Shown in pieces: positions 1,963-48,365 of a stretch of DNA of 64,000 nucleotides (positions within the stretch are counted from its first letter, which is position 1; every line of letters starts with the position of its first letter). A model generated the notes under the pieces. That model worked only from the letters and a program-made list of their open reading frames with translations. It had not been told where the DNA came from and searched no databases. Origin of the DNA: Candidatus Kaiserbacteria bacterium (GTDB taxonomy: Bacteria > Patescibacteriota > Minisyncoccia > Phycocordibacterales > UBA2100); NCBI GenBank assembly GCA_016217925.1, contig JACRFK010000004.1, forward strand, positions 46,435 to 110,434, given 5' to 3'. The translations under genes were made by a program, and so were the position numbers.

Positions 1963-1997
1963 CGTGAAATTATATCACCCTGTCGCCGCACGAACCG

Positions 1998-2441
1998 TTA
2001 CAGCTTAAGCCGGTAGACGTTGGTCGGCCACTGTTCAAAACCCAATTTTTGGTACAGCTTGTTCGCCGCCTCGCGGTCCGCGCGGCTGGAAAGCGAGATG
2101 GAGCCGATTTTCCTCTCTCGCGCTCGTGCAATCAACTTCTCACTGAGTTGCTTGCCCAAGCCCTGTCCCCGGTACTTTTCATCAACAACAACATCCTCGA
2201 TCTGAGCTCGTTCACCCTCCGGGATGACGACGATGGCAAGTGTTGCCATTCCGACTATTGTTTCATCATCCTGCGCAACCCAGAGTTCAACATTTTCATC
2301 TGCAATGATTTTTGTAAGAAGCTCCATCGAACATTTCGGCAAACGCTCCGAGAGCTGAAACACGAGCGCGTTGATATCCTCTAGCGCCTTTGGGCTTGCT
2401 TTCGTGAGTTCTTGGATAGTTATCATAAAAGGAGCGTACAC
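1998..2441 (-). CDS. GNAT family N-acetyltransferase
   Basis: 147 aa; acetyl-CoA binding motif YRGQGLGKQL (Q/RxxGxG/A). Confidence 0.8.
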   Translation of the reverse strand: MYAPFMITIQELTKASPKALEDINALVFQLSERLPKCSMELLTKIIADENVELWVAQDDETIVGMATLAIVVIPEGERAQIEDVVVDEKYRGQGLGKQLSEKLIARARERKIGSISLSSRADREAANKLYQKLGFEQWPTNVYRLKL

Positions 2442-3014
2442 TTATAGATGCGTTTCCGCAATTGCCTTATTGATGGAAGAGAGCAGCTTGTCGCGTTTGG
2501 CTTCCACCTCGGAGAGGTGCTCGATGCCATATGCAGTATGAGTGAAGAGGGTTGATTCAAGGGCCTCCGGGGAAATATATCCTAGCGCATACAAGACACG
2601 TGCCACACATACAACTTCGACGGCCGTCACCGATGTATGTGTCCCCGTTGTGAGTGCCTGGTGCGCATTCGCAAGTGTCTCGAAGAGATACTCGCTCTTT
2701 TCTTCTCCGTGCACGAGCCGCATTGTGAGCTCCGCGATGCGCGCGAATGTGGCTATGCACTTCCTGTCGCCCGTCGCCGATTTGAGCGCAGCTGCACCGG
2801 CGAGCCGCCATCCGCGCTTCCCCTTCACCAACGACACCTTCGCGCGCGAGTAATCTTGGACCGCATATCGCATCTTTGAACGTTCCTTGCGCACGGCGGA
2901 CGCGCGTGCGCGTACGAGTCCGAAGTCGCGGGTGAAAAGCACAATCATCCTATCCGCTTCGCTCATCTCGCGATTTCCCAGTACGAGCGCTTCGGTGTGG
3001 TATTTCTGGTACAT
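2442..3014 (-). CDS. recO: DNA repair protein RecO
   Basis: 190 aa; N-terminal OB-fold region (..MIVLFTRDFGLVRARA..) and overall layout typical of RecO; the start codon directly abuts an inverted-repeat element. Confidence 0.75.
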   Translation of the reverse strand: MYQKYHTEALVLGNREMSEADRMIVLFTRDFGLVRARASAVRKERSKMRYAVQDYSRAKVSLVKGKRGWRLAGAAALKSATGDRKCIATFARIAELTMRLVHGEEKSEYLFETLANAHQALTTGTHTSVTAVEVVCVARVLYALGYISPEALESTLFTHTAYGIEHLSEVEAKRDKLLSSINKAIAETHL

Positions 3015-3104: not shown

Positions 3105-6074
3105 TTATTCGAATTCGATAATCGTGCTCGTAGCCTTTTGCAGCTCAGCGAGATACTTCTCGAGAATCGTCCGACTCTCTGGAGAAACTTTAAGCCGGTG
3201 CGTGGCAGATTCTCCGGGCTTCATGTTTTGTGATTTCCTGAACGCCTGTATCTCGCGAATGGTGTCGCGCACGAGCCCCTCTTCACGCAGTTCGTCCGTA
3301 ATGTTCGTGTCAAGCGCGACGCCATCGCCTGTCCGTTCCACCTTTTTCACGTTCACCTCGTCGGCGACGATAGAAAGATACTTATCGGCAAGCTTCGTAC
3401 CGCGCGGGATCGAGAGCGTCGCTAGCGGCTGGCGGACCTTTATCTTCGCTGCGTCGCGTGCTTCGAGCGCTTTCGTCACGATGGCGCGCGCGGCCTCCAT
3501 GGCTTCAAGAAGTTCTTTGTCCTTATTCGTGCCCCCGAACAGCCGCGCGAAGAATCCTGTCGGCACGGAGACTTCGGGCCACATTGCGAGGTGCACACTT
3601 TCTTCATCTTCGCTTTCACGTACCGCTTGAAAGAGGTGCTCCGCAAAGAAAGGCGTCGCAGGAGCCATCACGAGCGAGAGACGATGGAGCACGTAGCGCA
3701 ACGTCGCAAGTGCCGCCGTTTTATCTGGACCGTCTTCTTTAAAACGTTCACGACTTCTTCGGAGGTACCACACGGAAAGGTCGTCGATGAATTTGGGAAG
3801 CGGTCGCGCCGCAGCATCGAGCTGATAGCTCTCGTAACCCTGTGTCGTCGCGATGATGCACTCATCGAGGCGCGCAATTATCCATCTGTCTAAGATGTTC
3901 GAACTATTCCAATCACGCGGAGTGTCATCATTGTAGAGCTGCCAGAATGCGAGCACATTGCCGAGGCGGCCGATGTTTTTCTTCGCTACTTCATCGACGC
4001 CGCTTTCGGAAAAACTCAGATTCTCCGCCTGCATGACGGGAGAAGAAAGCAGGTAGAGCCGCAGCGCGTCGGCGCCATATTTCTCCACAACTTCCATCGG
4101 GTCGGGATAATTCTGCAATTTCTTGGACATTTTCTTGCCGTCTTCTGCCAAGACGATGCCGTTCACAATGACGTTTTGAAATGTGTTCTTTTGGAAGAGG
4201 GCGCCGCCGAGCACGTGCAAGTAATAGAACCATGCGCGCGTCTGGTCCAGTCCTTCGGCAATGAACTGCGCGGGGAACGTCGCCTCGAACCGTTCCTTGT
4301 TTTTAAAAGGGTAATGTTTTTCTCCATAAGGCATCGAGCCCGAATCAAACCATGTGTCCAAGACGTCGGGAATTCTTTTCATCGTGCCTGAGCATTTCTC
4401 GCAGTCAAAAGTTACTTCGTCTACTATATGCTTGTGTAGGTCATCAATTGCGCGGCCGCTTGCCTTTTCAAGCTCTTTGGCGCTCCCAAAAACAATCTCG
4501 TGCCCGCATCCCTTGCTGCCAACTGCCAACTGCTTACTGCTAACTGTCCCCATGCAGCGCCACACAGGAATGACGCTCGCCCAGAAACGCTGCCGCGAGA
4601 TAGACCAGTCGCGCGCGCCTTCGAGCCATTTACCGAATCTCCCCTCTTTGATGTGCGACGGCGTCCAATTGACCGCTTCCGCATTTTTGAGGAGATTTTC
4701 TTTTACCTTTGTGACGGAGACGAACCACGATGACGTCGCATAGTTGAGGAGCGGCGTATCGCAGCGCCAACAATGCGGATACGAGTGGGTGATATTTTCT
4801 TTCGAGAAAAACAAGCCTTTGTCCTGTAAGTATTTGAGTACGGCGATATCGGTACCGAGCCGTTCTTTGTCGTCATCAGAGCGCGGCTTGACCTCCATGC
4901 CCGCGAAATCTTTTACTTCGGGCTTCATCGTTCCGTCCATATTGACGTGCTGGACGAACGGCAGGTTCTCTCTCTTGGAAAGTTCCCAGTCATCGGCACC
5001 AAAAGCGGGCGCTTCATGCGCGATACCCGTGCCCGCGTCGGTCGTAATGAAATCCGCCGTGTATACTTTCCACCCGTTCTCGCGATTTTTGAGCGTTGTG
5101 TCGCTGCTGTAGTAGTCGAACGGCGGCCTGTATTTTTTGCCGACGAGCTCGTTGCCCTTCACCTCCGAAACGACTTGCGCGTCTTGTAGATCTTTTTGAT
5201 AGCGGTCGAGCGCTGCTTTCGCGAGAATGTAGGTACCCGACTTCGCCCTGACCTTCACATAGTCAATATCGCCTTTCACCGCAAGCGCGGTATTTCCGGG
5301 CAGCGTCCACGGAGTCGTCGTCCACGCCAAGAAATACGTCCCTGGTTCTTCCACGAGTTCGAATTTCAGAGTGACTGAAATATCTTTCATATCTTTGTAC
5401 CCTTCCGCGACTTCCTGTTGAGAGAGCGTCGTCTCGCAGCGCGGGCAGATGTGCATTGAACGGTAATCCTCGTAGACCAGTCCTTTGTCGTATATCTGTT
5501 TGAATACCCACCAGACGGATTCCATGAACGGCTTGTCCATCGTGCGGTACGCGTGCTCCATATCGGCCCAGCGGCCGATGCGCGGGACAATCTTTTCCCA
5601 ATCGGATGCAAATGTAAGTACGCGGGCTCGGCACGTCTCGTTGAATTTTGCGATACCGAATTCTTTTATGTCTTTCTTGTGCTTAAAACCGAGCTCTTTC
5701 TCAACGATGTTTTCTATGGGCAATCCGTGACAATCCCAGCCCCACACACGTGGCACCGAGTAGCCGCGCATCGTCCAGAATCGCGGTACGACGTCTTTGA
5801 TGACCGAGGCGACGATGTGGCCATAGTGCGGCAAGCCCGTAGCGAACGGGGGGCCATCGTAAAAAACGTATTCCCCCTTCGGGGCATCTTTTTTGACCGA
5901 TTTATTGAAAATGTCGTTCTCCTTCCAGAATTTCAGTGTTTTCTCTTCCCGCCGTGCCGTCTCGTTTTTTTGCCGGTTTTCCTCCATTCGTACTATCGTA
6001 GCAGAGAGAACAGGCTGCCGCGAGGTTAAGCCGTCTGTAGCTGAGCGCAGTTCGAGGCGCGGAGAAAACAACAT
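3105..6074 (-). CDS. ileS: isoleucyl-tRNA synthetase
   Basis: Class I aaRS: HIGH-type motif PHYGH, KMSKS variant KMSKK, large editing insertion; 989 aa as called. True start is probably the internal Met (MEENRQKNETARREEK..., ~5987). Confidence 0.93.
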   Translation of the reverse strand: MLFSPRLELRSATDGLTSRQPVLSATIVRMEENRQKNETARREEKTLKFWKENDIFNKSVKKDAPKGEYVFYDGPPFATGLPHYGHIVASVIKDVVPRFWTMRGYSVPRVWGWDCHGLPIENIVEKELGFKHKKDIKEFGIAKFNETCRARVLTFASDWEKIVPRIGRWADMEHAYRTMDKPFMESVWWVFKQIYDKGLVYEDYRSMHICPRCETTLSQQEVAEGYKDMKDISVTLKFELVEEPGTYFLAWTTTPWTLPGNTALAVKGDIDYVKVRAKSGTYILAKAALDRYQKDLQDAQVVSEVKGNELVGKKYRPPFDYYSSDTTLKNRENGWKVYTADFITTDAGTGIAHEAPAFGADDWELSKRENLPFVQHVNMDGTMKPEVKDFAGMEVKPRSDDDKERLGTDIAVLKYLQDKGLFFSKENITHSYPHCWRCDTPLLNYATSSWFVSVTKVKENLLKNAEAVNWTPSHIKEGRFGKWLEGARDWSISRQRFWASVIPVWRCMGTVSSKQLAVGSKGCGHEIVFGSAKELEKASGRAIDDLHKHIVDEVTFDCEKCSGTMKRIPDVLDTWFDSGSMPYGEKHYPFKNKERFEATFPAQFIAEGLDQTRAWFYYLHVLGGALFQKNTFQNVIVNGIVLAEDGKKMSKKLQNYPDPMEVVEKYGADALRLYLLSSPVMQAENLSFSESGVDEVAKKNIGRLGNVLAFWQLYNDDTPRDWNSSNILDRWIIARLDECIIATTQGYESYQLDAAARPLPKFIDDLSVWYLRRSRERFKEDGPDKTAALATLRYVLHRLSLVMAPATPFFAEHLFQAVRESEDEESVHLAMWPEVSVPTGFFARLFGGTNKDKELLEAMEAARAIVTKALEARDAAKIKVRQPLATLSIPRGTKLADKYLSIVADEVNVKKVERTGDGVALDTNITDELREEGLVRDTIREIQAFRKSQNMKPGESATHRLKVSPESRTILEKYLAELQKATSTIIEFE

Positions 6075-18065: not shown

Positions 18066-18587
18066 TCAAAAGGCCCCCGAGAGCGTGAGCGAAAAACGCG
18101 CGCCGGGCTCTCCCGTGAGATCGCCGATGGGGATGGAGACCATCTTGAAAAGCGGGTCGGAGGAGAGCGCTTGGCGATATCCATTGATCGCTTCACGTGT
18201 CGCCGCAGAACCGGTAACCACGAGCGTTCCCGGCTCGTCTCCGGAATACGTAAGGTGATCGATCGTGATCGTGGAAGGTCGCAAAGAAAGTACTTTGGTT
18301 ATTGCGGCCGTCGGTGTCGTCGTCGCGACGAGGACCGGTGAAAGTGACGTGAGGATCGTTCGTATGGATGCGATCGCTGAGCGATCTGCATCGTTCACTG
18401 CTTTCGTAGAGGTACTCGTAGGAACGCCTGCGACATCGCCCGCATGGAGTGCGAGGTAGCTCGGCAATAGCGAAAGCGCACAGAGACTCGCAACGAAGAG
18501 CGCTGTGAACGAACCGGCAACTATGAAACGAGCGCGGTATGTGTTCCATACGGCTTTCTTTGCTTCTTTTGGGAGAATGTTGCTCAT
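18066..18587 (-). CDS. type IV pilus assembly protein PilN-like
   Basis: 173 aa; short cytoplasmic N-terminus (..AVWNTYRARF..) and one TM helix; start overlaps the pilM stop. Confidence 0.6.
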   Translation of the reverse strand: MSNILPKEAKKAVWNTYRARFIVAGSFTALFVASLCALSLLPSYLALHAGDVAGVPTSTSTKAVNDADRSAIASIRTILTSLSPVLVATTTPTAAITKVLSLRPSTITIDHLTYSGDEPGTLVVTGSAATREAINGYRQALSSDPLFKMVSIPIGDLTGEPGARFSLTLSGAF

Positions 18588-19726
18588 ATATGAAGTGACC
18601 GCATTGCAAGGCCAACGGCAGTCGCATACTGCAAAGAGGCACGACTATCGAGGGGTGGAATATATTCATCAAAGTCACACACGTGCTGCCATATATTGGC
18701 GACGTATGTAGGCGCTTGCACGCGCCCTGCGATGTAGTCCGGGAGCCCTTTCAGGTTCGCACTACCACCGACGATGAGGACCTGCCCGACTGGCGTCATG
18801 CGCTCACCTTTTTCGTTCCGGCGTGTGTCCCAGTAGTGATAGTGGCGCGCAACCTCATCAGCAAGGGCTGATGCCGTGCCAATTATGGCTTCGATACCCG
18901 GCGACTTGGGCCCCGCATCGGCAAGGAGGCCCTGTTCGTTCTTGAATATCTGCGTCTCTTCCGGTGACAAGGACAGCCCTTCTGCAACGGCACGAGTGAC
19001 CATATCGCCGCCGACCTCGACTGTTGAGGTAAAGATCGGTATGCCTCGCTTCAAGACGGCGAAACCCGTGCGTGCACGTCCAAAATCTACAAGGAGCGTG
19101 ACGGGTTCGTCTGCTGCATCTGAGGAGACAGCACGCGCGATGGAGCGCGCCTCGATCTCAAGCGAGAGGAGGCGGATGCCGGCGGCTTCAAACGCGGCAA
19201 CATAACTTTCTGCGAGCTCGCGCGCAAATACCGCAACGCCGATATCTTCCCCGGCGCCATCATCATGCCTTTGTATAACGTCGAAATCAAAAACCGCCGC
19301 TCCGGCGGCAATAGGGACCCGGCCCTCAAAGCCGAATTCGATCATGTTGATCGCTTGGTCATGGTCGGCACCTTCAGGTATATGCATCTCGAAGACGTAC
19401 GCCGCCTCCTCCGGCAATGCGGCATGTGCACAGTCGACGCCTCCGAAATATCTCTTGGCCTCAGCGAGCGCCGCCGCGAGCGCACCAACGTCTTGAACGA
19501 TCCCGTTCACAACAACACCTGTATCGAGGGGCATTTCACCGTATGACGCTATCCGATAACGACTTTTGAGCGGTGCAAGAATGAGCCACTTGATGGATGC
19601 GTCCGAAATGTCGACGCCTGCGGCGCGCGGATAAATCATCTCGGGTGTGGGGAACCACCGCGCAAATGTGCGCGACATTTTTCTTGCTGTGTTCCCAAAA
19701 CCAGAGCCACTCTTGAAGAGCTGCAT
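18584..19726 (-). CDS. pilM: type IV pilus assembly ATPase-like protein PilM (actin/HSP70 fold)
   Basis: 380 aa; PilM-type N-terminus ..VDISDASIKWLIL.. and glycine-rich nucleotide-binding segments; followed by pilN/pilO-like genes. Confidence 0.75.
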   Translation of the reverse strand: MQLFKSGSGFGNTARKMSRTFARWFPTPEMIYPRAAGVDISDASIKWLILAPLKSRYRIASYGEMPLDTGVVVNGIVQDVGALAAALAEAKRYFGGVDCAHAALPEEAAYVFEMHIPEGADHDQAINMIEFGFEGRVPIAAGAAVFDFDVIQRHDDGAGEDIGVAVFARELAESYVAAFEAAGIRLLSLEIEARSIARAVSSDAADEPVTLLVDFGRARTGFAVLKRGIPIFTSTVEVGGDMVTRAVAEGLSLSPEETQIFKNEQGLLADAGPKSPGIEAIIGTASALADEVARHYHYWDTRRNEKGERMTPVGQVLIVGGSANLKGLPDYIAGRVQAPTYVANIWQHVCDFDEYIPPLDSRASLQYATAVGLAMRSLHI

Positions 19727-27994: not shown

Positions 27995-28405
27995 ATGAAG
28001 AAACAGCAAGGTTTTACGCTTATTGAGTTACTAGTGGTTATCGCTATCATCGGCATTCTCGCGTCCATCGTACTCGCATCGCTCAACTCGGCACGCGTCA
28101 AAGCGCGCGATGCTCGTCGCCTCGCCGACATCGATGCAATAAAGAAGGCGCTTACACTTTACAACAACGACAACAATGCGTACGTCGTCTCGGCTGCCAC
28201 AACCACCATCACCGGGTCGGATGCGGTCTCAACAGCGCTTATTGCAGCCGGAGCGATATCCGTAGTCCCGGCTGACCCGCAGACTGGAACGTACGACTAC
28301 ACGTACCGCAGCGACGCCACCGGCAGTAACTACTGGCTTGGCTACTGCATGGAGAACGCCAACAATAACAACCTGCAAGGTTGTAATAATTTCTTTAGAC
28401 CATAA
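27995..28405 (+). CDS. type IV pilin (prepilin with class III signal peptide)
   Basis: 136 aa from MKKQQGFTLIELLVVIAIIGILASIV: the G/FTLIE prepilin peptidase cleavage/methylation motif. The ORF track N-terminal extension runs through tRNA-Ser and is rejected. GGTACAAT box 8 nt upstream of the ATG. Confidence 0.88.
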   Translation: MKKQQGFTLIELLVVIAIIGILASIVLASLNSARVKARDARRLADIDAIKKALTLYNNDNNAYVVSAATTTITGSDAVSTALIAAGAISVVPADPQTGTYDYTYRSDATGSNYWLGYCMENANNNNLQGCNNFFRP

Positions 28406-28417
28406 GAGGCCGGTCCG

Positions 28418-28458
28418 AAAGCCCCTCACTTGTCCGCAAGTGAGGGGCTTTTCGTTCT
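28418..28458 (+). terminator. rho-independent terminator after the pilin gene
   Basis: AAAGCCCCTCACTTG-tccgc-CAAGTGAGGGGCTTT followed by TCGTTCT. Confidence 0.75.
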
Positions 28459-28546
28459 AGAGCAACGATACTCCAGCTCTTTCTATCCCGTAGTTGTCCG
28501 ATAACCCCATGTACGTCCTGAAAGGGCGGGATACAATAGTAATGCT

Positions 28547-29017
28547 ATGCCACCTCAGAGGACCGTTTTGCGATGGAATGCGTACGAACATGAGCACGTA
28601 CCGCGCGGCAGCGACTGGTATTGGGCTCTCGGCATCATCGCGGTCTCTGCGGCGATTACGAGCATCCTTTTCCACGATGTCCTCTTCGCGATACTCATAC
28701 TCATCGCCGCTGCGATTTTGGGCATGCTGGCGAATGTCCCGCCAGAGATCGTGCGGTTCGAGATATCAGACCGCGGAGTTCGCGTGGGCGATACTATGCA
28801 TCGTTTTGAGGAGATAATCTCATTCTGGGTCGAGGAAGAAGGGCTCGATCGTCCGCTCCTTCTCGTCGACACGACGAAATTGATGGCTCCAAATCTCATT
28901 ATTCCCCTCGAGAATATAGACCCGCATGCGGTGCGTAGCTACCTGCGCGAACATGCCGAAGAGGTCCCGATGAAAGAACCTGTTGCGCACAAGATCCTCG
29001 AATTCTTTGGGTTGTAA
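28547..29017 (+). CDS. small two-TM membrane protein, function unknown
   Basis: 156 aa; hydrophobic segments WYWALGIIAVSAAITSILF and LFAILILIAAAILGML; GGGATACAAT box 9 nt upstream of the ATG. Confidence 0.5.
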   Translation: MPPQRTVLRWNAYEHEHVPRGSDWYWALGIIAVSAAITSILFHDVLFAILILIAAAILGMLANVPPEIVRFEISDRGVRVGDTMHRFEEIISFWVEEEGLDRPLLLVDTTKLMAPNLIIPLENIDPHAVRSYLREHAEEVPMKEPVAHKILEFFGL

Positions 29018-29021
29018 CGAT

Positions 29022-31214
29022 TTACTCGGCGACCGAGACAGTGGTCGTTGCTTCTTTAGTGCCTCCGGCAACTGTTTCGCAGTGAAGGAGGAACATCGCG
29101 CTCGTTGTTATCGGCGAGGTTGTCGCCGCGCCGGCGACACTCGTGTTGGAAGAGTTACGCTCGGTGAAGTCTTCCTGGTCTGGACTCGAGATGACGCAAG
29201 AGGTCATTCCTGTCGTAAGCCAGGAAAGAAGCGAGGTGCCGTTTGGGGGGACAGTTTTGGGATTCGCCACAAGAATGATGGTCGGGCGTGATACCTGGAC
29301 GGAGCATTGGGCGCCGGAGGTCTTAGCTCCGTCGACACACGCAAGAGAGTAGGTAGCGGTGTTGGTGCCGGCCGGAGGGTTCGCGACGGTCGTTGTGGCA
29401 GAGCCTCCGGGCTGGGTGGTGACGGTGAAGGAACTGCTGGAGGCGATGCCGGAGGAACAGCCGTAGGTGATGGCGATCTGCTGACCTACGTCGGCGACCT
29501 CAGGAGAGCACGAGAGGGTCGCCTTCGGCGTGCCTCCGCCTGTGGGGATGCACTGCCAATTCGTGATGCAAGCGCCGCTGTAGGTGGGCTGCCAAGAACC
29601 GGTGGTGCAGTTGTTGGGGTTGGGTCGTTGGGGTTGCATGGAGCACTGCCCTTGGGTTGACGGCGTGCACGCGACAGGCTGGGCTGGCAGAGGCATCGTC
29701 GGAGCATTGCCGCCGTAGTATTGATTCTGTTGCTGTTGTTGATACTGATACAGCTGGAGCTGATAGTTGTATTGCTGCAACTGTTGCTGGTACTGCTGTT
29801 GCTGCTGGGCATAGGCATTGGGGTCTGTGGAGCACTGTTGAGCGGCGGCAGGAGGCGGCATGGGTGGTGTCGGCTTAAAAGCATTCGCAAGGCCCTTCAG
29901 GAACGAATCGAGTGGTCCCGATGAGGAGTTTGAGGAAGAAGTCCTTCCTGTATTTGGATCTTGAAACGTTTGTTGACCCACGCGGATACAGTTGTTGGGC
30001 GGAGTTCCCGTGCTGCCGGGCGGACACTGTTGAGTCACGCTACCTTTAACGCACTCCGTGTCCCCCGCATCATTCTTCCCGCACTTGTACCCATTATTCT
30101 CAAGGTATCCCGCATCCTTCGGACCGGCCGGATAACACGTCCTTCCGCCGTCGTAACAATCGCGGGTAGCGGTCGGGTCACTGGGAGACCTGTCCAAGGA
30201 AGGATTCGAAGTGTCCCCCTTGTCACCCCCTTCCGGGATGAGAACCTTTGCGTCACCCAAATCCGGGTTTTGCTTGAAGGCATCCTCGGTCACTTGCCTA
30301 GAGGCTTCCAAGGCGGCTTGATCAGGATTGGCAAGTGCCATCTTTAGTATTTGATCGTCTGTTGGTGACGTCGCTGGCAGGGTCAGGGAAGAATCCGCGG
30401 GCTTAACGCCATAGGCGTTGTTCAAAATCTCAAGTGAGCGCGAGTCAATGCCCGACGAAATCTTGACGCCATTTACGCCGGTGCCTGTGTATGCATCAAA
30501 TGTACTTGTGTTTAATGATTGAGTAAGGATAGCGGTCTTATCGATACCGTCCATATTTGCCGTAAAACACTTAAATTCTTTTTTTGTTACGCCCATGTTA
30601 CCCCCCAAAGTAAGTACGCTATTCAGCGTATTACCTGTCGCGTTCGGTGTGCATGCCAGAGTGGCGCATTTTCCAGGCGGCATATTTGGATTCGGTTGCG
30701 TCGTCACCTTTATGCCCCCTTTATCGGAAGCAATGTCAACCTGCGCAGATTTCCCAACACATCGGTATTTAGCCGGTACCGATGCGTCCGGTATCGCCCC
30801 GACACAGTCGTCAGTCGCCTTTTCTGCAGGCTTGGCGGTTCTCTTGGTCGTTGCTGCGATTTTAGCTTCCTTGATTGCCGTTTCGCATTTCTTGGCGAGT
30901 TCGGCTCGCGCCGTTGCTTGTTGGCTGCCTACTGTATCACTGCCGATTCCCCCGGGCGCTGCGGTCTGAGACGCCGGATTGCCACCCGGCAATGTGGATT
31001 CGACACCTACGGCTACGGCCGAGAGAATCGCGACGAAAACGAATGCCGCTACTATCGAAACACCCCGAGCCGGGACTCGTCGTCTGAAAGCCACCATGTC
31101 GCAATCATGCGCCCCGCAGGCCTTTGGTGCAATGTGTATGAAGTGGAAAAGATCTCCGATCTCGGAACACATCCGAGAGGTTACGAAAAACTTATGCATA
31201 TTTTTTATAGACAT
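29022..31214 (-). CDS. giant secreted Gln-rich/Cys-rich surface protein, paralog A
   Basis: 730 aa; signal/TM (..VSIVAAFVFVAILSAVAVG..), Cys-containing central region, poly-Q/Y coiled-coil-like stretch (AQQQQQYQQQLQQYNYQLQLYQYQQQQQNQYY), then CTTGSWQPTYSGACITNWQCIPTGGG plus two Ig-like C-terminal modules. Shares a ~360-bp near-identical DNA block with paralog B. Confidence 0.7.
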   Translation of the reverse strand: MSIKNMHKFFVTSRMCSEIGDLFHFIHIAPKACGAHDCDMVAFRRRVPARGVSIVAAFVFVAILSAVAVGVESTLPGGNPASQTAAPGGIGSDTVGSQQATARAELAKKCETAIKEAKIAATTKRTAKPAEKATDDCVGAIPDASVPAKYRCVGKSAQVDIASDKGGIKVTTQPNPNMPPGKCATLACTPNATGNTLNSVLTLGGNMGVTKKEFKCFTANMDGIDKTAILTQSLNTSTFDAYTGTGVNGVKISSGIDSRSLEILNNAYGVKPADSSLTLPATSPTDDQILKMALANPDQAALEASRQVTEDAFKQNPDLGDAKVLIPEGGDKGDTSNPSLDRSPSDPTATRDCYDGGRTCYPAGPKDAGYLENNGYKCGKNDAGDTECVKGSVTQQCPPGSTGTPPNNCIRVGQQTFQDPNTGRTSSSNSSSGPLDSFLKGLANAFKPTPPMPPPAAAQQCSTDPNAYAQQQQQYQQQLQQYNYQLQLYQYQQQQQNQYYGGNAPTMPLPAQPVACTPSTQGQCSMQPQRPNPNNCTTGSWQPTYSGACITNWQCIPTGGGTPKATLSCSPEVADVGQQIAITYGCSSGIASSSSFTVTTQPGGSATTTVANPPAGTNTATYSLACVDGAKTSGAQCSVQVSRPTIILVANPKTVPPNGTSLLSWLTTGMTSCVISSPDQEDFTERNSSNTSVAGAATTSPITTSAMFLLHCETVAGGTKEATTTVSVAE
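29265..29625. repeat. ~360-bp near-identical (>95%) direct repeat shared with 32724..33084 (paralog gene-conversion tract)
   Basis: Side-by-side reading: ..cgccacaagaatgatggtcgggcgtgatacctggacggagca[t/c]tgggcgccggaggtcttagctccgtcgacaca.. matches in both copies through ..ggtggtgcagttgttggggtt..; flanks are more diverged. Confidence 0.8.
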
Positions 31215-31256
31215 AGAGCACTATGTACTAGTAATTATGTCCTGTACAATTGATGA

Positions 31257-32036
31257 ATGGTTGCAAAACGGTATGCGGTCGATTTGAAGAGTCGTGTAGC
31301 GAAGTTGCGCAGTACGGGTAAAACATATGCTGAAATACAAAAGGTCTTCTCCATTCCAAAGAGCACTCTTTCAGTCTGGCTGGGTAAGAGATACCGGGGA
31401 GTATTCGACAGAAACGCCCAACTTGAACACTTAAAGCGTGCCCGTCTTATCGCTGCAAGAATCCTCCGAGAGCGGAAGATCCAGCGTGATTCAATATCGG
31501 AAGCGAAAGGTATAGACGCGGCACGATTATTACCACTACAAGATGTTGGGTTCAGAAAATCACTTCTTGCCATGCTCTACTGGGCAGAAGGATCAAAACA
31601 CAAAAAGGCAAGTGGTCTGACTTTTACGAATACAGATCCCCGACTAGCGGTTCTCTATATCACGTTACTCAGATCTTGTTTTCTCATAGACGAAAAACGC
31701 CTTAGAATCCGACTGCACGTGCATCATTATCACAACAAAAAAGAGGCTGTGAGATTTTGGTCGCAGCTACTTCACGTTTCACCCGATCAATTTGGGAAAC
31801 TGCATGTAAAAAAGCGCAGCACGAGAAGGAAGTTCCGAAGGAACTTCATGGGTATTTGTTTTATTTCGTACGGTAATACCAGCATGCTGAAAGAAGTCCT
31901 TGCATTTGGTTACGCGATACAGGACCTGATTAACAAATCTCCAACCATGCCCTTGGCAGGAATCGAACCTGCATTTCATCCTTCGCAGGGATGTGTCCTA
32001 TCCATTGAACGACAAGAGCCGACGAGAGAAATGTAA
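31257..32036 (+). CDS. HTH + single-motif LAGLIDADG-like endonuclease ORF; 3' end runs antisense through tRNA-Arg(GCG)
   Basis: 259 aa; N-terminal HTH (GKTYAEIQKVFSIPKSTLSVWL), degenerate LAGLIDADG motif LLAMLYWAEGSK, basic C-terminus. Confidence 0.5.
   Translation: MVAKRYAVDLKSRVAKLRSTGKTYAEIQKVFSIPKSTLSVWLGKRYRGVFDRNAQLEHLKRARLIAARILRERKIQRDSISEAKGIDAARLLPLQDVGFRKSLLAMLYWAEGSKHKKASGLTFTNTDPRLAVLYITLLRSCFLIDEKRLRIRLHVHHYHNKKEAVRFWSQLLHVSPDQFGKLHVKKRSTRRKFRRNFMGICFISYGNTSMLKEVLAFGYAIQDLINKSPTMPLAGIEPAFHPSQGCVLSIERQEPTREM
31948..32019 (-). tRNA. tRNA-Arg (GCG), putative
   Basis: Acceptor GCTCTTG/CAAGGGC (one G-U), D-arm GTTC-AATGGATA-GGAC, anticodon stem CATCC/GGATG with loop CTGCGAA (GCG), T-arm GCAGG-TTCGATT-CCTGC. 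The rare anticodon and antisense overlap with a CDS lower confidence. Confidence 0.55.
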
Positions 32037-32066
32037 CACGTTTCGATTTTTTTCGTAACGCCACTC

Positions 32067-34997
32067 TTACCGCATCGTGAACGGGTCCGTGAATCCGAAC
32101 TCCAGGTACAGTGGGTCGGGCGCCGACGGTGGCGTATTCGGCTCACCGAGATTTGCGTCGGCAGGAGTGTACAGATCCGCCTCTATCATATAATCGCGAC
32201 CGCTCACGAGATCTGTGTCGCACACATAAGGAGTACCCGACGGGCACGCATCGCCCGCGTTCGGTACATGCCAGTCATAACTGCCGCTCGTCGCCTTCCC
32301 TCCCGCGATAAGCCCCACGACCTCACCGCCCTGCACATCGACTAACCATAGCGATATTGCCGAGCCTGGAGGCGGATTTATCGTGCGCCAGGCGATGGTC
32401 GTCGTCGTGCCGAGCGGTACCGTCGCCCCGTCTATCGTAGAACTCGCCTCCACCAACCCGCCGGCAAAATTGTCGGGAACTCCCGCAACGTGGACAGTGG
32501 TCGTTGCTCCCTTGGTACCTCCTGCGAGAGTCTGACACTCGAGATGGATACGTGCGGCTGATGTAAGTGGCGTCGTCGTAGCCGCGCCGGCAACGCTCGT
32601 ATTACTCATATTTTGTATCGTGAAGCCGGGCATGTCCGGACTCGATATCACACAGGAATCCATCCCCGTCGTGAGCCAGCTGATGAGCGAGGTGCTGCTC
32701 GCGGCGGTAACCGTGGCGGGATTCGCCACAAGAATGATGGTCGGGCGTGATACCTGGACGGAGCACTGGGCGCCGGAGGTCTTAGCTCCGTCGACACAGG
32801 CCAGAGAGTAGGTCGCAGTGTTGGTGCCGGCGGGGGGATTCTGGACGGTCGTGGTGGCAGAGCCTCCGGGCTGGGTAGTGATGGTGAAGGAACTGCTGGA
32901 GGCGATGCCGGAGGAACAGCCGTAGGTGATGGCGATCTGCTGACCTACGTCTGCGACCTCAGGAGAGCACGAGAGGGTCGCCTTCGGCGCGCCTCCGCCC
33001 GTGGGGATGCATTGCCAATTCGTGATGCAAGCGCCGCTGTAGGTGGGCTGCCACGAGCCGGTGGTGCAGTTGTTGGGGTTTGGTTGTGGGACTTGGTCTC
33101 GGCACTGGTTGCCGGTCGACGGGGAGCATGGGGTGGGTCGTTGCGGAAGTGGTAAGTCGGGCGGCGTGATACCGCCGTTTCTTTCTGCATAGAACTGGTT
33201 CATCTGCTGCTGGTACTGCTGTTGCTGGAGCTGGTAGTTGTACTGCTGTAACTGCTGCTGGTACTGCTGTTGCTGCTGGGCGTATACGTTCTGATCGGTC
33301 GAGCAGGCTTGGGCGGGCGCGGCTGGCGGAGATTGCGGAGCACCGAGCGCTTTCATAAGTCCCTCGAGCATAGAGCTGAGCGCCTTCCCGATATCACCCC
33401 CGCCACCGCCCGGCTTGTCGCCACCCGGTTTCTCGCCACCAGTTCCCGGCCCGGCGCCCGGACCAGCCGGCGGAGTAGGCGTTTTGACCTCCGGTTTTGC
33501 ATCCGGCGTCCCGTCGCCTTTCTTGACCTCTGGCTTGACTTCCGGCTTCGGCACATCGGTCTTTGCTCCAGGTTTGGGCGCAGGCCCTGATTTTGGACAC
33601 GTTGACGCGTCGGACCCCGGGCTTCCACAAGGAGTTCCGAAAGCATCCGTCATCTGTGGAGTTTTTTTGTCTACAGAGTCTGCCTTGTCCCCAGACTTCG
33701 GCGGAGTGTTTTTCTCTCCAGCATCCGCCTTGTCTCCAGATTTCGGTGTACTTGGGCCTGATGGTGATGCGTCAGTTTTCTGCGGCGGGCTACTTCCCTG
33801 TTCATCCTTCAGCTTCTGTGCCTGAAGTCTATCCAACTCTTCTTGTTTCGCCTCAGGAAAGTTTTCGCCAGCCCCCGCGTTAGCGATTGCTTTCTCATTT
33901 TCAAGCTCTTGAATGCGCGCATCCCTCTCGAGCGCGATTTGTTTGTCTGCCTCAGCCCATGCCGCCTGGTCGGAACGAATTGTTTCCTCTAGCGCGGCTT
34001 GATTGTTTGCCCCAGCCCATGCCGCCTGGTCGGAACGAATTGTATTCTCCAGCTCGGCTCTTCTAAGTTCCTCTGGAGTGGCTGCGGGCCCAAAGGTGTC
34101 GTTGACCCCTGGCGTGGTAGGACCAAAGGCATCCTTCAGATTGGCATACTCTGCCGCCTGTTCTGGCGTGAGCTTCACGGCATTCTCACCGAGCGCTTTA
34201 TCTATCGCCCATGGATTCTCTCCTTGGTAGTCACTAGGTATCGGCGCGGTCGGGTCGTTACCGTATGCTTGAATCTGTTCCAGCGCAGTAGCCTCTTTCA
34301 ATGCCTTATCACGCAGGGCCTCATTCGAGGTGTACGCCGAATACGCGTTCCGTATTGCCTCTTGATCGCATCCTGACTGACCCGCCATACAAACTGCATC
34401 AAGTTGCGTATACGCATCTTTTTGATCTTTTGCTAACGCGTCGTACGCCGCCGCCTGGTCTCTTAGTTTTTGGATTTCATCAGCATTCGACGGGACCTTG
34501 GGCGGCTCGCCTGTCCCGGCATCGTCTGTAGGGCCTTTTGTCAACGTACATTGCTTTTCGTCGCAGATGTCCGCATGGCAGATATTCTCTGCTATACAGT
34601 AGCCTTGCGCAGCAATATCCGTATCCTCCGTATGCTGGCATTTCTTCCACGACAGATTTGTTATTATGACCTTAACGTACGAACCCTCTTGGTACGTCGG
34701 CCCCTTCGCCTTGGTCCCGTATTTATGTGTCGTGTCCTCTTTCGGGCACTCCTTATCGGCCTCTTTGGGGTCGCTGGGTGTCGACGCCGCGCTTTGTGCC
34801 AGCTGCGCTTGCGGGGCGAACGCATATGAAGAGGCTGAAGAAAACGAGTTGGCTACCTCGACGACGCCTGTTACGCCGCCGAGGATGGCTACAAACACAA
34901 GGGGGGTTACAAGAGAAAACTTTCGCTCCCGGTTGAGCGATTCGTGGAAAACCATATCACAATAATGCGGCCTATAGGGCGAAGCTGCAATGCGCAA
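32067..34997 (-). CDS. giant secreted Gln-rich/Cys-rich surface protein, paralog B
   Basis: 976 aa; signal/TM (..LVTPLVFVAILGGVTGVVEV..), Pro/Lys/Glu-rich spacer (KPEVKPEVKKGDGTPDAKPEVKTPTPP), tandem ~27-aa repeat (TIRSDQAAWA..), poly-Q/Y stretch, then the same CTTGSWQPTYSGACITNWQCIPTGGG + Ig-like tail as paralog A, plus an extra C-terminal domain. Confidence 0.7.
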   Translation of the reverse strand: MRIAASPYRPHYCDMVFHESLNRERKFSLVTPLVFVAILGGVTGVVEVANSFSSASSYAFAPQAQLAQSAASTPSDPKEADKECPKEDTTHKYGTKAKGPTYQEGSYVKVIITNLSWKKCQHTEDTDIAAQGYCIAENICHADICDEKQCTLTKGPTDDAGTGEPPKVPSNADEIQKLRDQAAAYDALAKDQKDAYTQLDAVCMAGQSGCDQEAIRNAYSAYTSNEALRDKALKEATALEQIQAYGNDPTAPIPSDYQGENPWAIDKALGENAVKLTPEQAAEYANLKDAFGPTTPGVNDTFGPAATPEELRRAELENTIRSDQAAWAGANNQAALEETIRSDQAAWAEADKQIALERDARIQELENEKAIANAGAGENFPEAKQEELDRLQAQKLKDEQGSSPPQKTDASPSGPSTPKSGDKADAGEKNTPPKSGDKADSVDKKTPQMTDAFGTPCGSPGSDASTCPKSGPAPKPGAKTDVPKPEVKPEVKKGDGTPDAKPEVKTPTPPAGPGAGPGTGGEKPGGDKPGGGGGDIGKALSSMLEGLMKALGAPQSPPAAPAQACSTDQNVYAQQQQQYQQQLQQYNYQLQQQQYQQQMNQFYAERNGGITPPDLPLPQRPTPCSPSTGNQCRDQVPQPNPNNCTTGSWQPTYSGACITNWQCIPTGGGAPKATLSCSPEVADVGQQIAITYGCSSGIASSSSFTITTQPGGSATTTVQNPPAGTNTATYSLACVDGAKTSGAQCSVQVSRPTIILVANPATVTAASSTSLISWLTTGMDSCVISSPDMPGFTIQNMSNTSVAGAATTTPLTSAARIHLECQTLAGGTKGATTTVHVAGVPDNFAGGLVEASSTIDGATVPLGTTTTIAWRTINPPPGSAISLWLVDVQGGEVVGLIAGGKATSGSYDWHVPNAGDACPSGTPYVCDTDLVSGRDYMIEADLYTPADANLGEPNTPPSAPDPLYLEFGFTDPFTMR
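32724..33084. repeat. second copy of the ~360-bp near-identical block (see 29265..29625)
   Basis: As above. Confidence 0.8.
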
Positions 34998-35066
34998 AAG
35001 GGGAAAGCTTAGGCCGTCTACAGGCGAATCAGCAGATTTCGTGGCTTGGCCTGCCTAACACAGACG

Positions 35067-36036: not shown

Positions 36037-37014
36037 ATGATTAAACGCGTCCTTATCATATCTCTCGTCATATTCATCATCGCGCTCTTCATTTTCTGGT
36101 TGGTGACCGGCGGCGGTGCTGCTGCGGCACGCGCAGCGCGTTCGCTCGCAAACCCGCTCGAACTTATCTTCGGGACGAGTACTTCTGGCTCATTCATCGC
36201 GCTCCCCTGGCAACCGGATTCTTCCACACGCGGCCCCGATATCAGCGACTACGCATCTGAAGCCGCAGCACTCAATCAGGCTTCTGGCGATACGGACCAA
36301 CTGCCAAGCTCGGAAGATACGCAGGTGCGTGACTTCGGCACTCCGTCACCATACGCTGGAAGGATCACTATCCGAGAGAGTAGCGCGACGGAGAGTGACC
36401 CCTCGCGAGAATTCATCGAACTCGCCGCGTCCGAAAGCAACACGGGCCCTATTCTCATAACGAATTGGTCCCTGCAAAGTGCTGTCTCCGGAGCACGTGC
36501 GCCTATTCCCCAAGCCGCGCCGGCCTTTGTCATGGGCGTCGTCAACAACGTGCTGCCAATATCTCTCGAACCGGGCGCGGCCGTATTTGTAACGACGGCG
36601 GCATCGCCCGTCGGCACTTCGTTCCGTGAAAATGTCTGCACTGGCTATTTAAGCGAGCTCCAGACGTTCACACCGGAGCTTGCGGGCGAGTGCCCGGCAC
36701 CGTCGGAAATGTTGCCGATGAATGCCGACAACATCCGCACGTACGGCAGCTCGTGCTTTGACTATCTCAACAACTTGTCTTCGTGCCATTTCACCCCCAA
36801 CCCACCGCCCAGCCTGTCGCCCGCATGCCGATCGTTCATCACCAACGCAGTCTCCTACAACGGGTGCGTCAATACCTACCGTGCCCAAGCCTCGTTTACG
36901 CTCCCCACGTACCGTGCATATCTCTCGCTACGTTCAGAACTATGGGCCAATACGCATGAAGTGGTCCGTCTCTTGGACGCCGAGGGAAGGACCGTGGACG
37001 TCTTAACGTACTGA
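36037..37014 (+). CDS. membrane-anchored secreted protein, function unknown
   Basis: ~325 aa from MIKRVLIISLVIFIIALFIFWLV (signal/anchor). The ORF track start (35842) overlaps ruvA in another frame and is rejected. Cys-containing C-terminal half. Confidence 0.55.
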   Translation: MIKRVLIISLVIFIIALFIFWLVTGGGAAAARAARSLANPLELIFGTSTSGSFIALPWQPDSSTRGPDISDYASEAAALNQASGDTDQLPSSEDTQVRDFGTPSPYAGRITIRESSATESDPSREFIELAASESNTGPILITNWSLQSAVSGARAPIPQAAPAFVMGVVNNVLPISLEPGAAVFVTTAASPVGTSFRENVCTGYLSELQTFTPELAGECPAPSEMLPMNADNIRTYGSSCFDYLNNLSSCHFTPNPPPSLSPACRSFITNAVSYNGCVNTYRAQASFTLPTYRAYLSLRSELWANTHEVVRLLDAEGRTVDVLTY

Positions 37015-46667: not shown

Positions 46668-48365
46668 ATGGCCACGCAATTCAACGAGAAAAAGCAAGAG
46701 GAACGCCTCGCGGAGCTTCGCTCGCAAGAAGAGGAGCAGCTCGCCGAGATGCTCTCGGGCAAGTACGGCGTCGAATACGTGGACCTCACGTCGAAATCCA
46801 TAGATACCGACGCACTGCGCATCGTCGAAGAGAAGACCGCGCGCACCACAGAGATAGCGGCGTTCCACAAGGTCAACAAAAACCTTTTCCTCGCAATGCG
46901 CGCGCCGGAGCGGCCCGATGCCATTCAGGCTATACAGAACATAGAGAAGCTCGGATATACGGTGCGTCGATTCATCGTCTCCAAGGCGTCGCTTGAACAT
47001 GCCTGGGACCGTTACCACGACATTTCGTACGCGACCGAGACGGAAGCGGGCATTCTTACGCTATCGAACGAGACTATCAACCAAATGCTCCAAAAACTGA
47101 AAAAGCTCGAAGACGTCCGCCTTGAAATACAAACCTACTCCGGCTCAAAAGACACGCACCGCATCTCCCGCGTGCTTGAAATAATCATGGCAGGCGCTCT
47201 CTCGCTCGGTGCCAGCGACGTGCACCTCGAGCCTGAGGAAGACGCCGTGCGCATGCGCTATCGTCTTGACGGTGTCTTGATAGAGGTCACAACGTTTGAC
47301 GCTCCCACGTACGCGCTCATCTCGAGCCGCCTGAAACTTCTCTCCGGATTAAAGCTCAATATAAAGAACGCGGCACAAGACGGCCGCTTCTCGATAGTTG
47401 TGAACCAAAAAGAGATCGAGATACGCGCCTCGGTATTGCCGGGAGCGTACGCCGAAACCATCGTCATGCGTATTTTGGATCCTTCGACCATTGCGCTCCC
47501 GATGGAAGCGCTCGGGTTCGACAAATACCTGATGGATATATTCAATCGCGAAATAGCGAAGCCCAACGGTATGATATTGAACACCGGTCCGACGGGAAGC
47601 GGAAAGACGACGACGCTCTACGCCTTTTTGCGACAGGTAGCAAATCCCGGTATTAAAGTCGTTACTATCGAAGACCCTATCGAATACCATCTACCCGGCA
47701 TCGTCCAGACGCAGGTTTCCAAGGATTACACGTTCGCCTCCGGATTGCGCTCGACATTGCGTCAGGACCCGGATGTCATCATGGTGGGCGAGATACGAGA
47801 TGCCGAGGTCGCCTCGACTGCCGTACACGCATCGCTCACGGGGCACCTGGTCTTCTCTACCCTCCACACCAACGACGCGGCGGGCACCTTCCCCCGCCTC
47901 ATCGACATGGGCGTGAATGCAGACATCTTGGGCGCCGCGGTTACCGTCGCGATGGCACAACGTCTCGTACGCCGGCTCTGCCCCGCATGCCGCGTGCCGA
48001 CACCGATCGGGCCAGAGGACAAAAAGACGATGGAACCTCTCCTGCGCAACATTCCCCATGCGGACGAGCTGCCCGCGAATCGCGACACGATGTGGCTCCC
48101 GAAGGGCTGCGAAAAATGCGGCAATCTTGGCTACAAAGGGCGCATCGCGGTCGTGGAAGTTATTTTGATGGATAAAGAAATAGAAGATTGCGTGCGCCAC
48201 ACTTCATCCGAGCGCGATATCTGGAAAGCAGCCGCGCACCAAAAGATCCGCCGCATGGGACAAGACGGCGTCGTTAAAGTCCTGCAAGGCGTCACCTCGC
48301 TCGAAGAGCTCGCGCGCGTAGTCGACCTGCAGGACACCGTGATGTTGGAAAGTATTGGTAATTAA
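46668..48365 (+). CDS. pilB: type IV pilus assembly ATPase PilB / GspE-family secretion ATPase
   Basis: 565 aa; Walker A GPTGSGKTTT, Asp/His boxes, Walker B ..VIMVGEIRD.., tetracysteine CPAC..CEKC motif. Confidence 0.92.
   Translation: MATQFNEKKQEERLAELRSQEEEQLAEMLSGKYGVEYVDLTSKSIDTDALRIVEEKTARTTEIAAFHKVNKNLFLAMRAPERPDAIQAIQNIEKLGYTVRRFIVSKASLEHAWDRYHDISYATETEAGILTLSNETINQMLQKLKKLEDVRLEIQTYSGSKDTHRISRVLEIIMAGALSLGASDVHLEPEEDAVRMRYRLDGVLIEVTTFDAPTYALISSRLKLLSGLKLNIKNAAQDGRFSIVVNQKEIEIRASVLPGAYAETIVMRILDPSTIALPMEALGFDKYLMDIFNREIAKPNGMILNTGPTGSGKTTTLYAFLRQVANPGIKVVTIEDPIEYHLPGIVQTQVSKDYTFASGLRSTLRQDPDVIMVGEIRDAEVASTAVHASLTGHLVFSTLHTNDAAGTFPRLIDMGVNADILGAAVTVAMAQRLVRRLCPACRVPTPIGPEDKKTMEPLLRNIPHADELPANRDTMWLPKGCEKCGNLGYKGRIAVVEVILMDKEIEDCVRHTSSERDIWKAAAHQKIRRMGQDGVVKVLQGVTSLEELARVVDLQDTVMLESIGN

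Follow-up and report, generated by a model that had tools for sequence, protein, structure and literature searches.

Gene conversion in the conserved C-terminal module of two probable envelope-protein paralogs of a Kaiserbacteria genome

We analyzed a 64-kb stretch of DNA from a Candidatus Kaiserbacteria genome (contig JACRFK010000004.1 of assembly GCA_016217925.1), referred to here as the window, that carries two large tandem paralogs whose predicted products have an N-terminal hydrophobic segment and immunoglobulin (Ig)-like domains near the C terminus. The paralogs are gene 1 and gene 2; the letters B and A, respectively, are used for these genes and their products. Related loci in other genomes have L numbers, and related proteins have P numbers. 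The two genes are as follows.

32067..34955, minus strand: gene 1 (B), 962 amino acids (aa) from the MVFHESLN start; the open reading frame (ORF) reaches 34997 (976 aa)
29022..31097, minus strand: gene 2 (A), 691 aa from the MVAFRRR start; the ORF reaches 31214 (730 aa)

The 730-aa and 976-aa genes described in a first-pass annotation of this DNA are present as ORFs 29022-31214(-) and 32067-34997(-), and the likely products are the shorter ones. The true starts are likely the MV codons at 31097 (A) and 34955 (B) because the DNA 5' of MV is conserved in A, B, and their relatives and because the NCBI gene model has the same length. That model is the hypothetical protein HY971_02605 from a Candidatus Kaiserbacteria metagenome-assembled genome (MAG) (P0001, 962 aa), which is identical to the B ORF from its 15th codon. 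Protein A itself was absent from the protein collection searched, in which the best match was 70% identical; its N-terminal relatives are P0022-P0026. The genes are direct repeats 3.46 kb apart, both are complete ORFs, and no further copy was found within the window. The GC content at the locus is unremarkable.

B begins with a leader/transmembrane anchor and a Cys-rich variable region; a helical stalk containing 20-aa repeats and a Pro/Lys/Gly linker come next, and the C-terminal module is followed by a third beta-sandwich. A also starts with a leader/transmembrane anchor and a Cys-rich variable region and continues with the conserved module, stopping after the second Ig-like domain. The modular layout that the first-pass annotation had assigned to both proteins, with a poly-Gln/Tyr stretch, the motif CTTGSWQPTYSGACITNWQCIP, and two Ig-like modules, is present, and the third C-terminal beta-sandwich of B, which was not listed, has to be added to it. 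The proteins end in ...ATTTVSVAE (A) and ...EFGFTDPFTMR (B). BLASTP aligned A with B at 75% identity across the C-terminal 300 aa (E=1e-108); elsewhere only the leaders aligned, and weakly.

Comparison of the two genes gave a single near-identical block within diverged flanks, as had been described.

29259..29621, minus strand: gene-conversion tract, A copy, spanning the three-Cys hairpin and the first Ig-like domain and reaching into the second; 363 nucleotides (nt), 94.8% identical to the B copy
32718..33080, minus strand: gene-conversion tract, B copy, the best-scoring ungapped segment against A; 363 nt, 94.8%

Codon-aligned nucleotide identity between A and B was 0.90-0.98 in the block and 0.5-0.65 in the flanks, with a second, weaker peak of 0.80-0.85 above the Gln/Tyr stretch. 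The block is real, and its identity falls slightly below the '>95%' first reported for 29265-29625 versus 32724-33084, where 20 mismatches in 361 nt correspond to 94.5%. When the positions of the differences were shuffled, 0 of 2000 trials gave a 366-nt window that was equally similar.

Synonymous divergence is what separates recombination from constraint on the protein. In Nei-Gojobori counts, the proportions of differing synonymous (pS) and nonsynonymous (pN) sites between A and B were 0.17 and 0.019 in the tract. In the A/B flanks pS was 0.71-0.79, and between orthologs it was 0.63-0.67 over the same codons as the tract. At nonsynonymous sites of the tract A and B differ at 1.9%, versus 13-16% for orthologs compared with the genes in the window. 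Protein constraint cannot lower synonymous divergence to this extent, and therefore non-reciprocal recombination explains the block. The grouping of the sequences agrees. In the tract, A and B were 0.93-0.98 identical in nucleotides, whereas each was 0.60-0.72 identical to its own ortholog in L003; in the second Ig domain, A and B were 0.58-0.65 identical, whereas identity to the L003 orthologs was 0.68-0.84. Tract sequences thus group by genome and those of the second Ig domain group by ortholog, which means that within the tract the paralogs of one genome are more alike than orthologs are and that outside it the reverse holds, the pattern of concerted evolution. These results demonstrate that the block arose by gene conversion between the paralogs, as the first-pass annotation had proposed, and does not reflect protein-level constraint. 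The two tract copies still differ at 19-21 spread positions, 16 of them synonymous. Because so many differences, mostly synonymous, remain, the conversion event is not very recent and both copies were resolved by the assembler.

Conversion was also evident in related genomes. A scan of one genome per GTDB species yielded 59 loci, mostly labeled Kaiserbacteria or Paceibacterota, in which a profile of the module found tandem full-length pairs in approximately 12, a shorter second paralog in six, and a single copy in the remainder. Sliding-window comparison of the pairs revealed tracts with at least 90% identity in five species, each with different boundaries.

Window: profile positions 91-220
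L002/L009 (same species): profile positions 125-293, 100% identical over ~480 nt
L008: profile positions 7-276
L001: profile position 128 to the contig end
L017: profile positions 156-272

Weaker, older patches, with identities of 0.79-0.89, were found in L003/L004, L013, L007, L030, and L039. The five species and their differing boundaries indicate independent conversion events in several lineages, as expected for concerted evolution. Every tract covers the conserved module, with the Cys hairpin and the Ig-like domains, and never the variable N-terminal part. The N-terminal ectodomains had no significant similarity between the paralogs of any genome compared. Even between positional orthologs the N-terminal regions were 36-48% identical over partial lengths or did not match, versus 62-77% identity for their C-terminal modules. 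Recombination between the genes homogenizes the conserved module and leaves the variable part unshuffled, because the N-terminal halves of paralogs are dissimilar and the tracts lie only in the module.

Two further arrangements were observed in this survey. In L002, gene 1 (398-3001) has an N-terminal half of the gene-1 type, and its last ~480 nt are 100% identical to gene 2 (3332-5236). This gene 1 is without the third C-terminal domain of its counterparts in the window and L003, and the tract runs to the stop codon. The L002 sequence suggests that conversion can also remodel the 3' end of a gene, with an assembly effect as a possible cause. In a distant subclade (L024, L025, L027, L028, L029, and L034), the family gene is followed by a shorter paralog of 388-429 aa that matches the two Ig-like domains only. 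Nucleotide identity between these copies was 0.43-0.46, with no conversion signal. The shorter paralog is a second, independent type of duplication.

The proteins belong to a large family. A profile search of 1.84 billion representatives of clusters formed at 50% identity recovered 305 representatives at E<1e-30, rising to 810 at E<1e-10. In all cases the module is located at the extreme C terminus of proteins of ~600-1100 aa, and it ends after the second Ig domain or after the third domain. A and B had no match in Pfam, NCBIfam, PHROGs, or PDB sequences beyond a weak Kre9_KNH match in the last domain of B, and thus no enzyme family was found that would speak against a surface function. A match to FlxA in the searches with A and B was rejected as spurious because it reflected low-complexity sequence. 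The variable regions of 62 diverse members contained no domain recognized in a Pfam scan, and no SLH, CWB2, or S-layer domain was found in A, B, or these members. NCBI names one relative (P0008) 'Ser-Thr-rich GPI-anchored membrane family'. Literature searches found no paper on the family.

The C-terminal 437 aa of B were modeled with AlphaFold2 (AF2) from 21 sequences. The model, with a mean predicted local distance difference test (pLDDT) score of 79.6, comprises a long helix, a beta-hairpin, and beta-sandwiches. These elements and the repeats in the stalk map as follows.

33177..33293, minus strand: Gln/Tyr-rich helix of B (YAQQQQQYQQQLQQYNYQLQQQQYQQQ...), model residues 30-68, pLDDT 73-80; A equivalent at ~29694-29834
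33003..33059, minus strand: three-Cys beta-hairpin of B (CTTGSWQPTYSGACITNWQC), AF2 strands 108-126, CTTGSW...C...C motif; A equivalent at ~29538-29615
32484..32981, minus strand: two Ig-like beta-sandwiches of B, model residues 134-211 and 214-299; A equivalent at ~29025-29525
32073..32453, minus strand: third C-terminal beta-sandwich, B only, Kre9/KNH-like, AF2 residues 310-436, pLDDT 85-96
33927..34046, minus strand: two tandem 60-nt repeats in the helical stalk of B, 20-aa unit ALEETIRSDQAAWAxANxQA, 87% identity

At the protein level the Gln/Tyr helix is nearly invariant across orthologs, and the family consensus of the hairpin is C-x2-G-x-W-x-P-x(n)-C-x3-W-Q-C. The beta-sandwiches of the model are structurally like Ig, MG, or PKD domains, and its structural neighbors are Ig-like domains of adhesion and surface proteins. 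The third domain is present in about half of the family members. On this domain of B, the Kre9/KNH model PF10342 scored 17.7 bits (E=0.006) versus a cutoff of 24.6 bits; among the 62 members, five matched at E<=0.01 (best 2.6e-5), and P0010 has a precomputed PF10342 match. The 20-aa repeat is present in two copies in the window, three in P0003/P0004, and five in P0002, so that stalk length varies between strains. The family is Cys-rich, with a median of 26 Cys residues among 135 full-length members. The AF2 model of the module and the N-terminal hydrophobic segments are consistent with the secreted, surface-type architecture with Ig-like folds that had been suggested for A and B, although both features are predicted.

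A hydrophobic segment is present at the N terminus of A, B, and 119 of the 135 full-length members, and the sequence that follows it is Pro/Gly-rich. Neither A nor B has an LPXTG motif or a C-terminal hydrophobic segment.

34857..34955, minus strand: leader/membrane anchor of B (MVFHESLNRERKFSLVTPLVFVAILGGVTGVV)
30999..31097, minus strand: leader/membrane anchor of A (MVAFRRRVPARGVSIVAAFVFVAILSAVAVGV), which fits sRG[AST]S[VI]LAALVxVAxLG

The B leader is kept at 26-30 of 33 residues in the five closest gene-1 orthologs and at 20-24 of 33 in L013, and the region after it diverges. The gene-1 leader is conserved in protein together with a short tail, MVFHESLNxERKF. Third-codon positions vary, which indicates constraint on the leader peptide. 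This conservation argues for a functional anchor that is probably retained rather than for a disposable signal peptide. The family consensus of the leader is sRG[AST]S[VI]LAALVxVAxLG (P0027-P0170), with R in 92%, G in 72%, and S in 59% of leaders and a Gly ~14 residues past RG in 51%. Approximately 15 residues after the hydrophobic segment is a conserved SQxAxAA, which might be a processing site. The leader consensus is in register with the G/FTLIELLVVIAIIG of the local pilins, with Phe1 and Glu5 missing, and in B the hydrophobic segment is preceded by Lys instead of Gly. The class III signal residues (G-1, F/M+1, E+5) are thus incomplete, and neither PF07963 nor TIGR02532 matched A, B, or any of the 62 members in hidden Markov model searches. 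Scored with a position matrix built from 16 local pilins, the family leaders were marginal, with a median of -29.6 versus -34.2 for other membrane-anchored ORFs, and 18% exceeded the 95th percentile of that background.

Both genes are preceded by a common sequence motif.

31098..31165, minus strand: upstream motif of A, TTTTCCAC ... CATTGCaCC ... GGGGCGCATGATTGCGAC-ATG
34956..35010, minus strand: upstream motif of B, TTTCCCCTTTTGCGCATTGCAGC ... GGCCGCATTATTGTGAT-ATG

In at least 10 genomes, family genes are preceded by an alignable motif, TTTTCCACaTTT ... CATTGC ... GGCGCATgATTGcG, that ends 2 nt 5' of the ATG; it was seen in L001-L003, L008, L010, L011, L013, L026, and L030. The exact 14-mer occurs in the window only at A (31100-31113), with a copy at B that has three mismatches, and matches with up to three mismatches are no commoner in the window than expected by chance. 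There is no Shine-Dalgarno sequence in the motif, and a -10-like CATGAT/CATTAT ends 6 nt before the ATG. The motif would be compatible with a promoter for leaderless mRNA, or with an operator, common to both paralogs. A scan for the sigma-70 consensus did not call it at the threshold of the scan. With complete ORFs and the same family-specific upstream motif, both genes look functional.

The locus had been regarded as a pilin-adjacent island, with the two genes downstream of a type IV pilin gene. The neighboring features are as follows.

27995..28405, plus strand: type IV pilin or pseudopilin (PF07963, 2e-11; TIGR02532, 6e-10), on the strand opposite to A and B
28547..29017, plus strand: 156-aa membrane ORF, convergent with A with stop codons 4 nt apart, two predicted transmembrane helices, weak DUF5673 match only
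31257..32036, plus strand: 259-aa ORF with a helix-turn-helix (HTH), inserted between the tRNA-Arg gene and the start of A, overlapping the tRNA antisense with its 3' end; Pfam HTH matches only
31948..32019, minus strand: tRNA-Arg(GCG), between the paralogs; position the same in related genomes, inverted in some
18584-19726, minus strand: PilM (PF11104, 3.6e-31)
46668-48365, plus strand: PilB/GspE-type ATPase (PF00437, 2.9e-114)
36040-37014, plus strand: membrane-anchored lamin-tail-domain (LTD) protein, adjoining ruvA

The pilin gene is not upstream of the pair: it is convergent with it, on the opposite strand, and the 156-aa membrane ORF lies between the pilin and A. The order rpsT, gene 1, tRNA-Arg, gene 2, convergent 156-aa ORF recurs in L001-L004, and because the arrangement is the same in all, the duplication predates the species of L001-L003. 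rpsT is located upstream of the family gene or genes in 44 of 62 loci, with ruvA, the LTD protein, and an SpoU methylase further upstream. The 156-aa ORF is the most constant neighbor: 56 of 62 loci have it directly downstream of a family gene, and in only two of these is it not on the opposite strand. The ORF may encode a functional partner, or its constancy may be simple synteny. The window is a housekeeping region, with genes for IleRS, ArgRS, PolA, and PBP1 as well as ruvA/B/C, dnaN, and dnaA. The locus is core genome rather than an island, because a pair or a single copy fills the same slot between rpsT and the 156-aa ORF in 44-56 of 62 loci within this housekeeping region, near dnaA, ruvABC, and polA. 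A phage or defense origin was considered and rejected: A and B have no PHROG matches, synteny is fixed, and the surroundings are housekeeping genes close to the origin. Judging by dnaA and dnaN at 54.9-57.6 kb, the probable replication origin is ~22-27 kb away from the locus.

Genes for PilM and a PilB-type ATPase are located 10-15 kb from the locus, one on each side. The search for pilin-linked relatives that the first-pass annotation had proposed gave a mixed result: 19 of 62 loci have a pilin after the 156-aa ORF, on the strand opposite to the family gene, and the remainder lack it. Pilin adjacency is therefore partly conserved synteny, not a constant association.

The tRNA-Arg gene and the 259-aa HTH ORF, both missing from the first-pass annotation, sit between A and B. 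The tRNA-Arg gene (L001 11979-12050, L002 3049-3120, L003 7947-8019) is on the strand of the paralogs in the window and in L002 and is inverted in L001 and L003. Partial copies of its 3' end are found nearby, in direct orientation in L003 and inverted in L002. These sequences suggest past site-specific insertion or inversion at tRNA-Arg. The HTH ORF is sporadic, present in 4 of 62 loci (the window, L005, L042, and L054), always between tRNA-Arg and the start of a family gene. Apparent homologs in 12 loci were mostly antisense translations of tRNA-Arg, and after trimming, true ones remained in three (L005, L042, and L054). Its product matches a PHROG transcriptional repressor (E=6.5e-4) and has an N-terminal HTH and an LYWAEGSK motif recalling LAGLIDADG endonucleases, with no model match. 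The ORF may be a mobile gene with site specificity or may encode a local regulator. An endonuclease, if that is what it encodes, could stimulate local recombination.

Considered together, these results make it probable that A and B descend from an old tandem duplication of a core envelope gene specific to the lineage of Kaiserbacteria and close relatives and that their C-terminal module evolves concertedly by gene conversion. Each product would have an N-terminal anchor, a rapidly evolving and often non-homologous Cys-rich ectodomain, and a conserved module of Gln/Tyr helix, three-Cys hairpin, and Ig-like domains. The 363-nt block would be the trace of fairly recent non-reciprocal homologous recombination between direct copies, and conversion would be confined to the module because enough nucleotide identity for recombination survives only there. 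A constraint shared by both modules, such as the same partner or co-assembly of A and B, would make homogenization harmless or useful. The expected outcome is a C-terminal module that evolves concertedly and N-terminal halves that are free to diverge. Sequence features suggest that A and B are exported and anchored at the N terminus and that their Cys residues form disulfides. It is also conceivable that the Gln/Tyr helix mediates oligomerization, that the Ig-like module is a common structural or partner-binding unit, and that the variable half confers strain-specific surface properties.

Several points weigh against this interpretation. Modeling was confident for the C-terminal part only, and the AF2 model of the N-terminal 395 aa of A (six homologs) had a pLDDT of 35 and was unusable. 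The 100% identical tracts in L002/L009 and the end of the L001 contig inside a tract could partly reflect short-read assembly. Surface display of A and B, and any adhesin or recognition role, are only inferred. If the N-terminal anchor stays uncleaved, the variable part would be nearest the membrane and the conserved Ig module farthest from it, opposite to the arrangement in most adhesins. Finally, homogenization may have been selected, through co-assembly or a common partner, or may be neutral conversion, and these data do not separate the two.

The alternatives differ in which of these observations they can accommodate. The near-identity of the block could in principle result from purifying selection since the duplication, without any conversion, and the block does encode the most conserved residues of the family. 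However, this explanation is refuted by the pS of 0.17 in the block versus ~0.65 between orthologs over the same codons, and A and B differ at 1.9% of nonsynonymous sites where orthologs differ at 13-16%, so that it can be virtually dismissed. That the block was produced during assembly, by repeat collapse or a chimeric consensus, is also very improbable. The source is a MAG, and the contig end within the L001 tract and the ~480 nt of complete identity in L002/L009 are typical trouble spots of short-read assemblers. Nevertheless, the copies in the window differ at 19-21 spread positions, 16 of them synonymous, and were kept apart by the assembler, both reading frames are intact, and the same phenomenon with other boundaries occurs in assemblies from unrelated projects. 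An artifact is unlikely for the window because of these differences and because the pattern recurs in independent assemblies.

The remaining alternatives accept conversion and give it, or the proteins, a different role. The first-pass annotation had read the paralogs as cassettes for antigenic or host-range variation of adhesins, which would swap segments in a programmed manner as pilE/pilS or vls do. Conversion between the copies is real and recurrent, the N termini vary extremely between strains, and in different genomes an identical leader can precede unrelated ectodomains (L001_2 versus L002_2; W_B versus L001_1, where W is the window). These leader/ectodomain mosaics fit population-level replacement of alleles through conserved flanks, and the number of 20-aa repeats also varies. 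However, conversion affects the best-conserved part of the protein, whereas cassette systems move variable segments and use conserved ones as anchors, and the variable halves are not shared between the paralogs of any genome. No expression site with silent or partial donors was found in the 64 kb, which hold two full-length copies, each provided with a separate start codon and the conserved upstream motif, and no promoterless partial cassettes; in most species there is a single copy. The cassette explanation is therefore unlikely. Its companion proposal, that A and B are pilus-tip adhesins, fares no better, given that only 19 of 62 loci have an adjoining pilin, encoded on the opposite strand, and that no prepilin model matches the family. 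In a related version, A and B would be subunits associated with type IV pili, with a leader that is a degenerate class III signal without Glu5, as in tip-located minor pilins. The register of the leader consensus with that of the local pilins, the pilin two genes away in the window and present in 19 of 62 loci, and the PilM and PilB-type ATPase genes in the window are in its favor. Points against it are the lack of PF07963 and TIGR02532 matches in A, B, and the 62 members, the Lys in B where Gly is expected, and pilin-matrix scores barely above those of other membrane-anchored ORFs. Furthermore, the Pro/Gly-rich sequence after ~20 hydrophobic residues would leave no long pilin alpha-1 helix and no pilin head, and the pilin is missing from two thirds of the loci and is on the other strand. 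We regard this version as rather improbable. Somewhat less doubtful, although still a long shot, is that the family is a core envelope component specific to the candidate phyla radiation (CPR) whose members obligatorily co-assemble through the Gln/Tyr helix and Ig module, perhaps as a stalk or canopy protein of the Kaiserbacteria envelope or as a giant Glu5-less prepilin-like subunit handled by the type IV pilus machinery, with the paralogs forming mixed oligomers.

The interpretation that we favor, an envelope-gene pair in concerted evolution, has parallels in other bacteria. In Brucella, the adjacent porin paralogs omp2a and omp2b undergo recurrent gene conversion with a tract extent that varies by lineage (PMC7050475). 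A and B are likewise neighboring envelope paralogs partly homogenized by recurrent conversion. In contrast to A and B, omp2a and omp2b encode Gram-negative outer membrane porins without a hypervariable half or an Ig-like module, and the families are unrelated. The Brucella copies are inverted in orientation. The emm, mrp, and enn genes of the streptococcal mga regulon encode tandem surface fibrils with a hypervariable N terminus, a helical repeat stalk, and a conserved C terminus, and neighbors recombine. A and B are similar in being tandem paralogs with a variable N-terminal part and a conserved C-terminal part, and B also has a helical repeat stalk. M proteins, however, have a C-terminal LPXTG/sortase anchor and are without Ig-like domains or a Gln/Tyr helix, whereas A and B have no LPXTG and their hydrophobic segment is N-terminal. 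Lactobacillus acidophilus slpA/slpB and the Campylobacter fetus sap genes are paralogs with an identical conserved anchoring part, which is the substrate of recombination, and a differing exposed part. They switch expression by inversion around a single promoter and include silent copies. Unlike them, A and B are direct repeats with their own upstream motifs and no SLH, CWB2, or S-layer domain, and they are Cys-rich, unlike classical S-layer proteins.

In the tandem lipoprotein cluster of Staphylococcus aureus, conserved segments rather than whole ORFs are the unit of recombination (PMC2568036). A and B also recombine by a conserved segment, but the S. aureus unit spans the 3' end, spacer, and 5' end of lipoprotein genes, whereas the unit in A and B lies inside the 3' third of both genes. 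Likeness to the Ig-like extenders MpIBP (5irb), GhpA (9flw), PrgB (8beg), invasin (1cwv), and RbmA (4be5) is one of fold class only, with 9-16% identity and template modeling (TM) scores of 0.13-0.3. The Gln/Tyr helix and three-Cys hairpin before the Ig domains had no counterpart among the structural matches, and no relationship at the level of sequence families was found. The weak Kre9/KNH match (PF10342) concerns the third domain, which B shares with about half of the family; this domain is optional and absent from A.

Thus, the genetic behavior of the pair is ordinary concerted evolution, which is already known, and none of these observations points to a new mechanism; the protein family is new and unannotated. 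In the tandem pair, gene conversion within a minimal genome has given a clean, multiply replicated case of concerted evolution. Uncultured CPR bacteria (Patescibacteria) are thought to live attached to other cells, and almost none of their surface proteins have been characterized. If obligate co-assembly were true, recurrent conversion would be its genomic footprint, and the hypervariable N-terminal halves would set strain-specific interactions with hosts or phages. With its fixed core position, confident C-terminal model, and highly variable N-terminal half, the family is a concrete candidate for host recognition or envelope structure in Kaiserbacteria and relatives.

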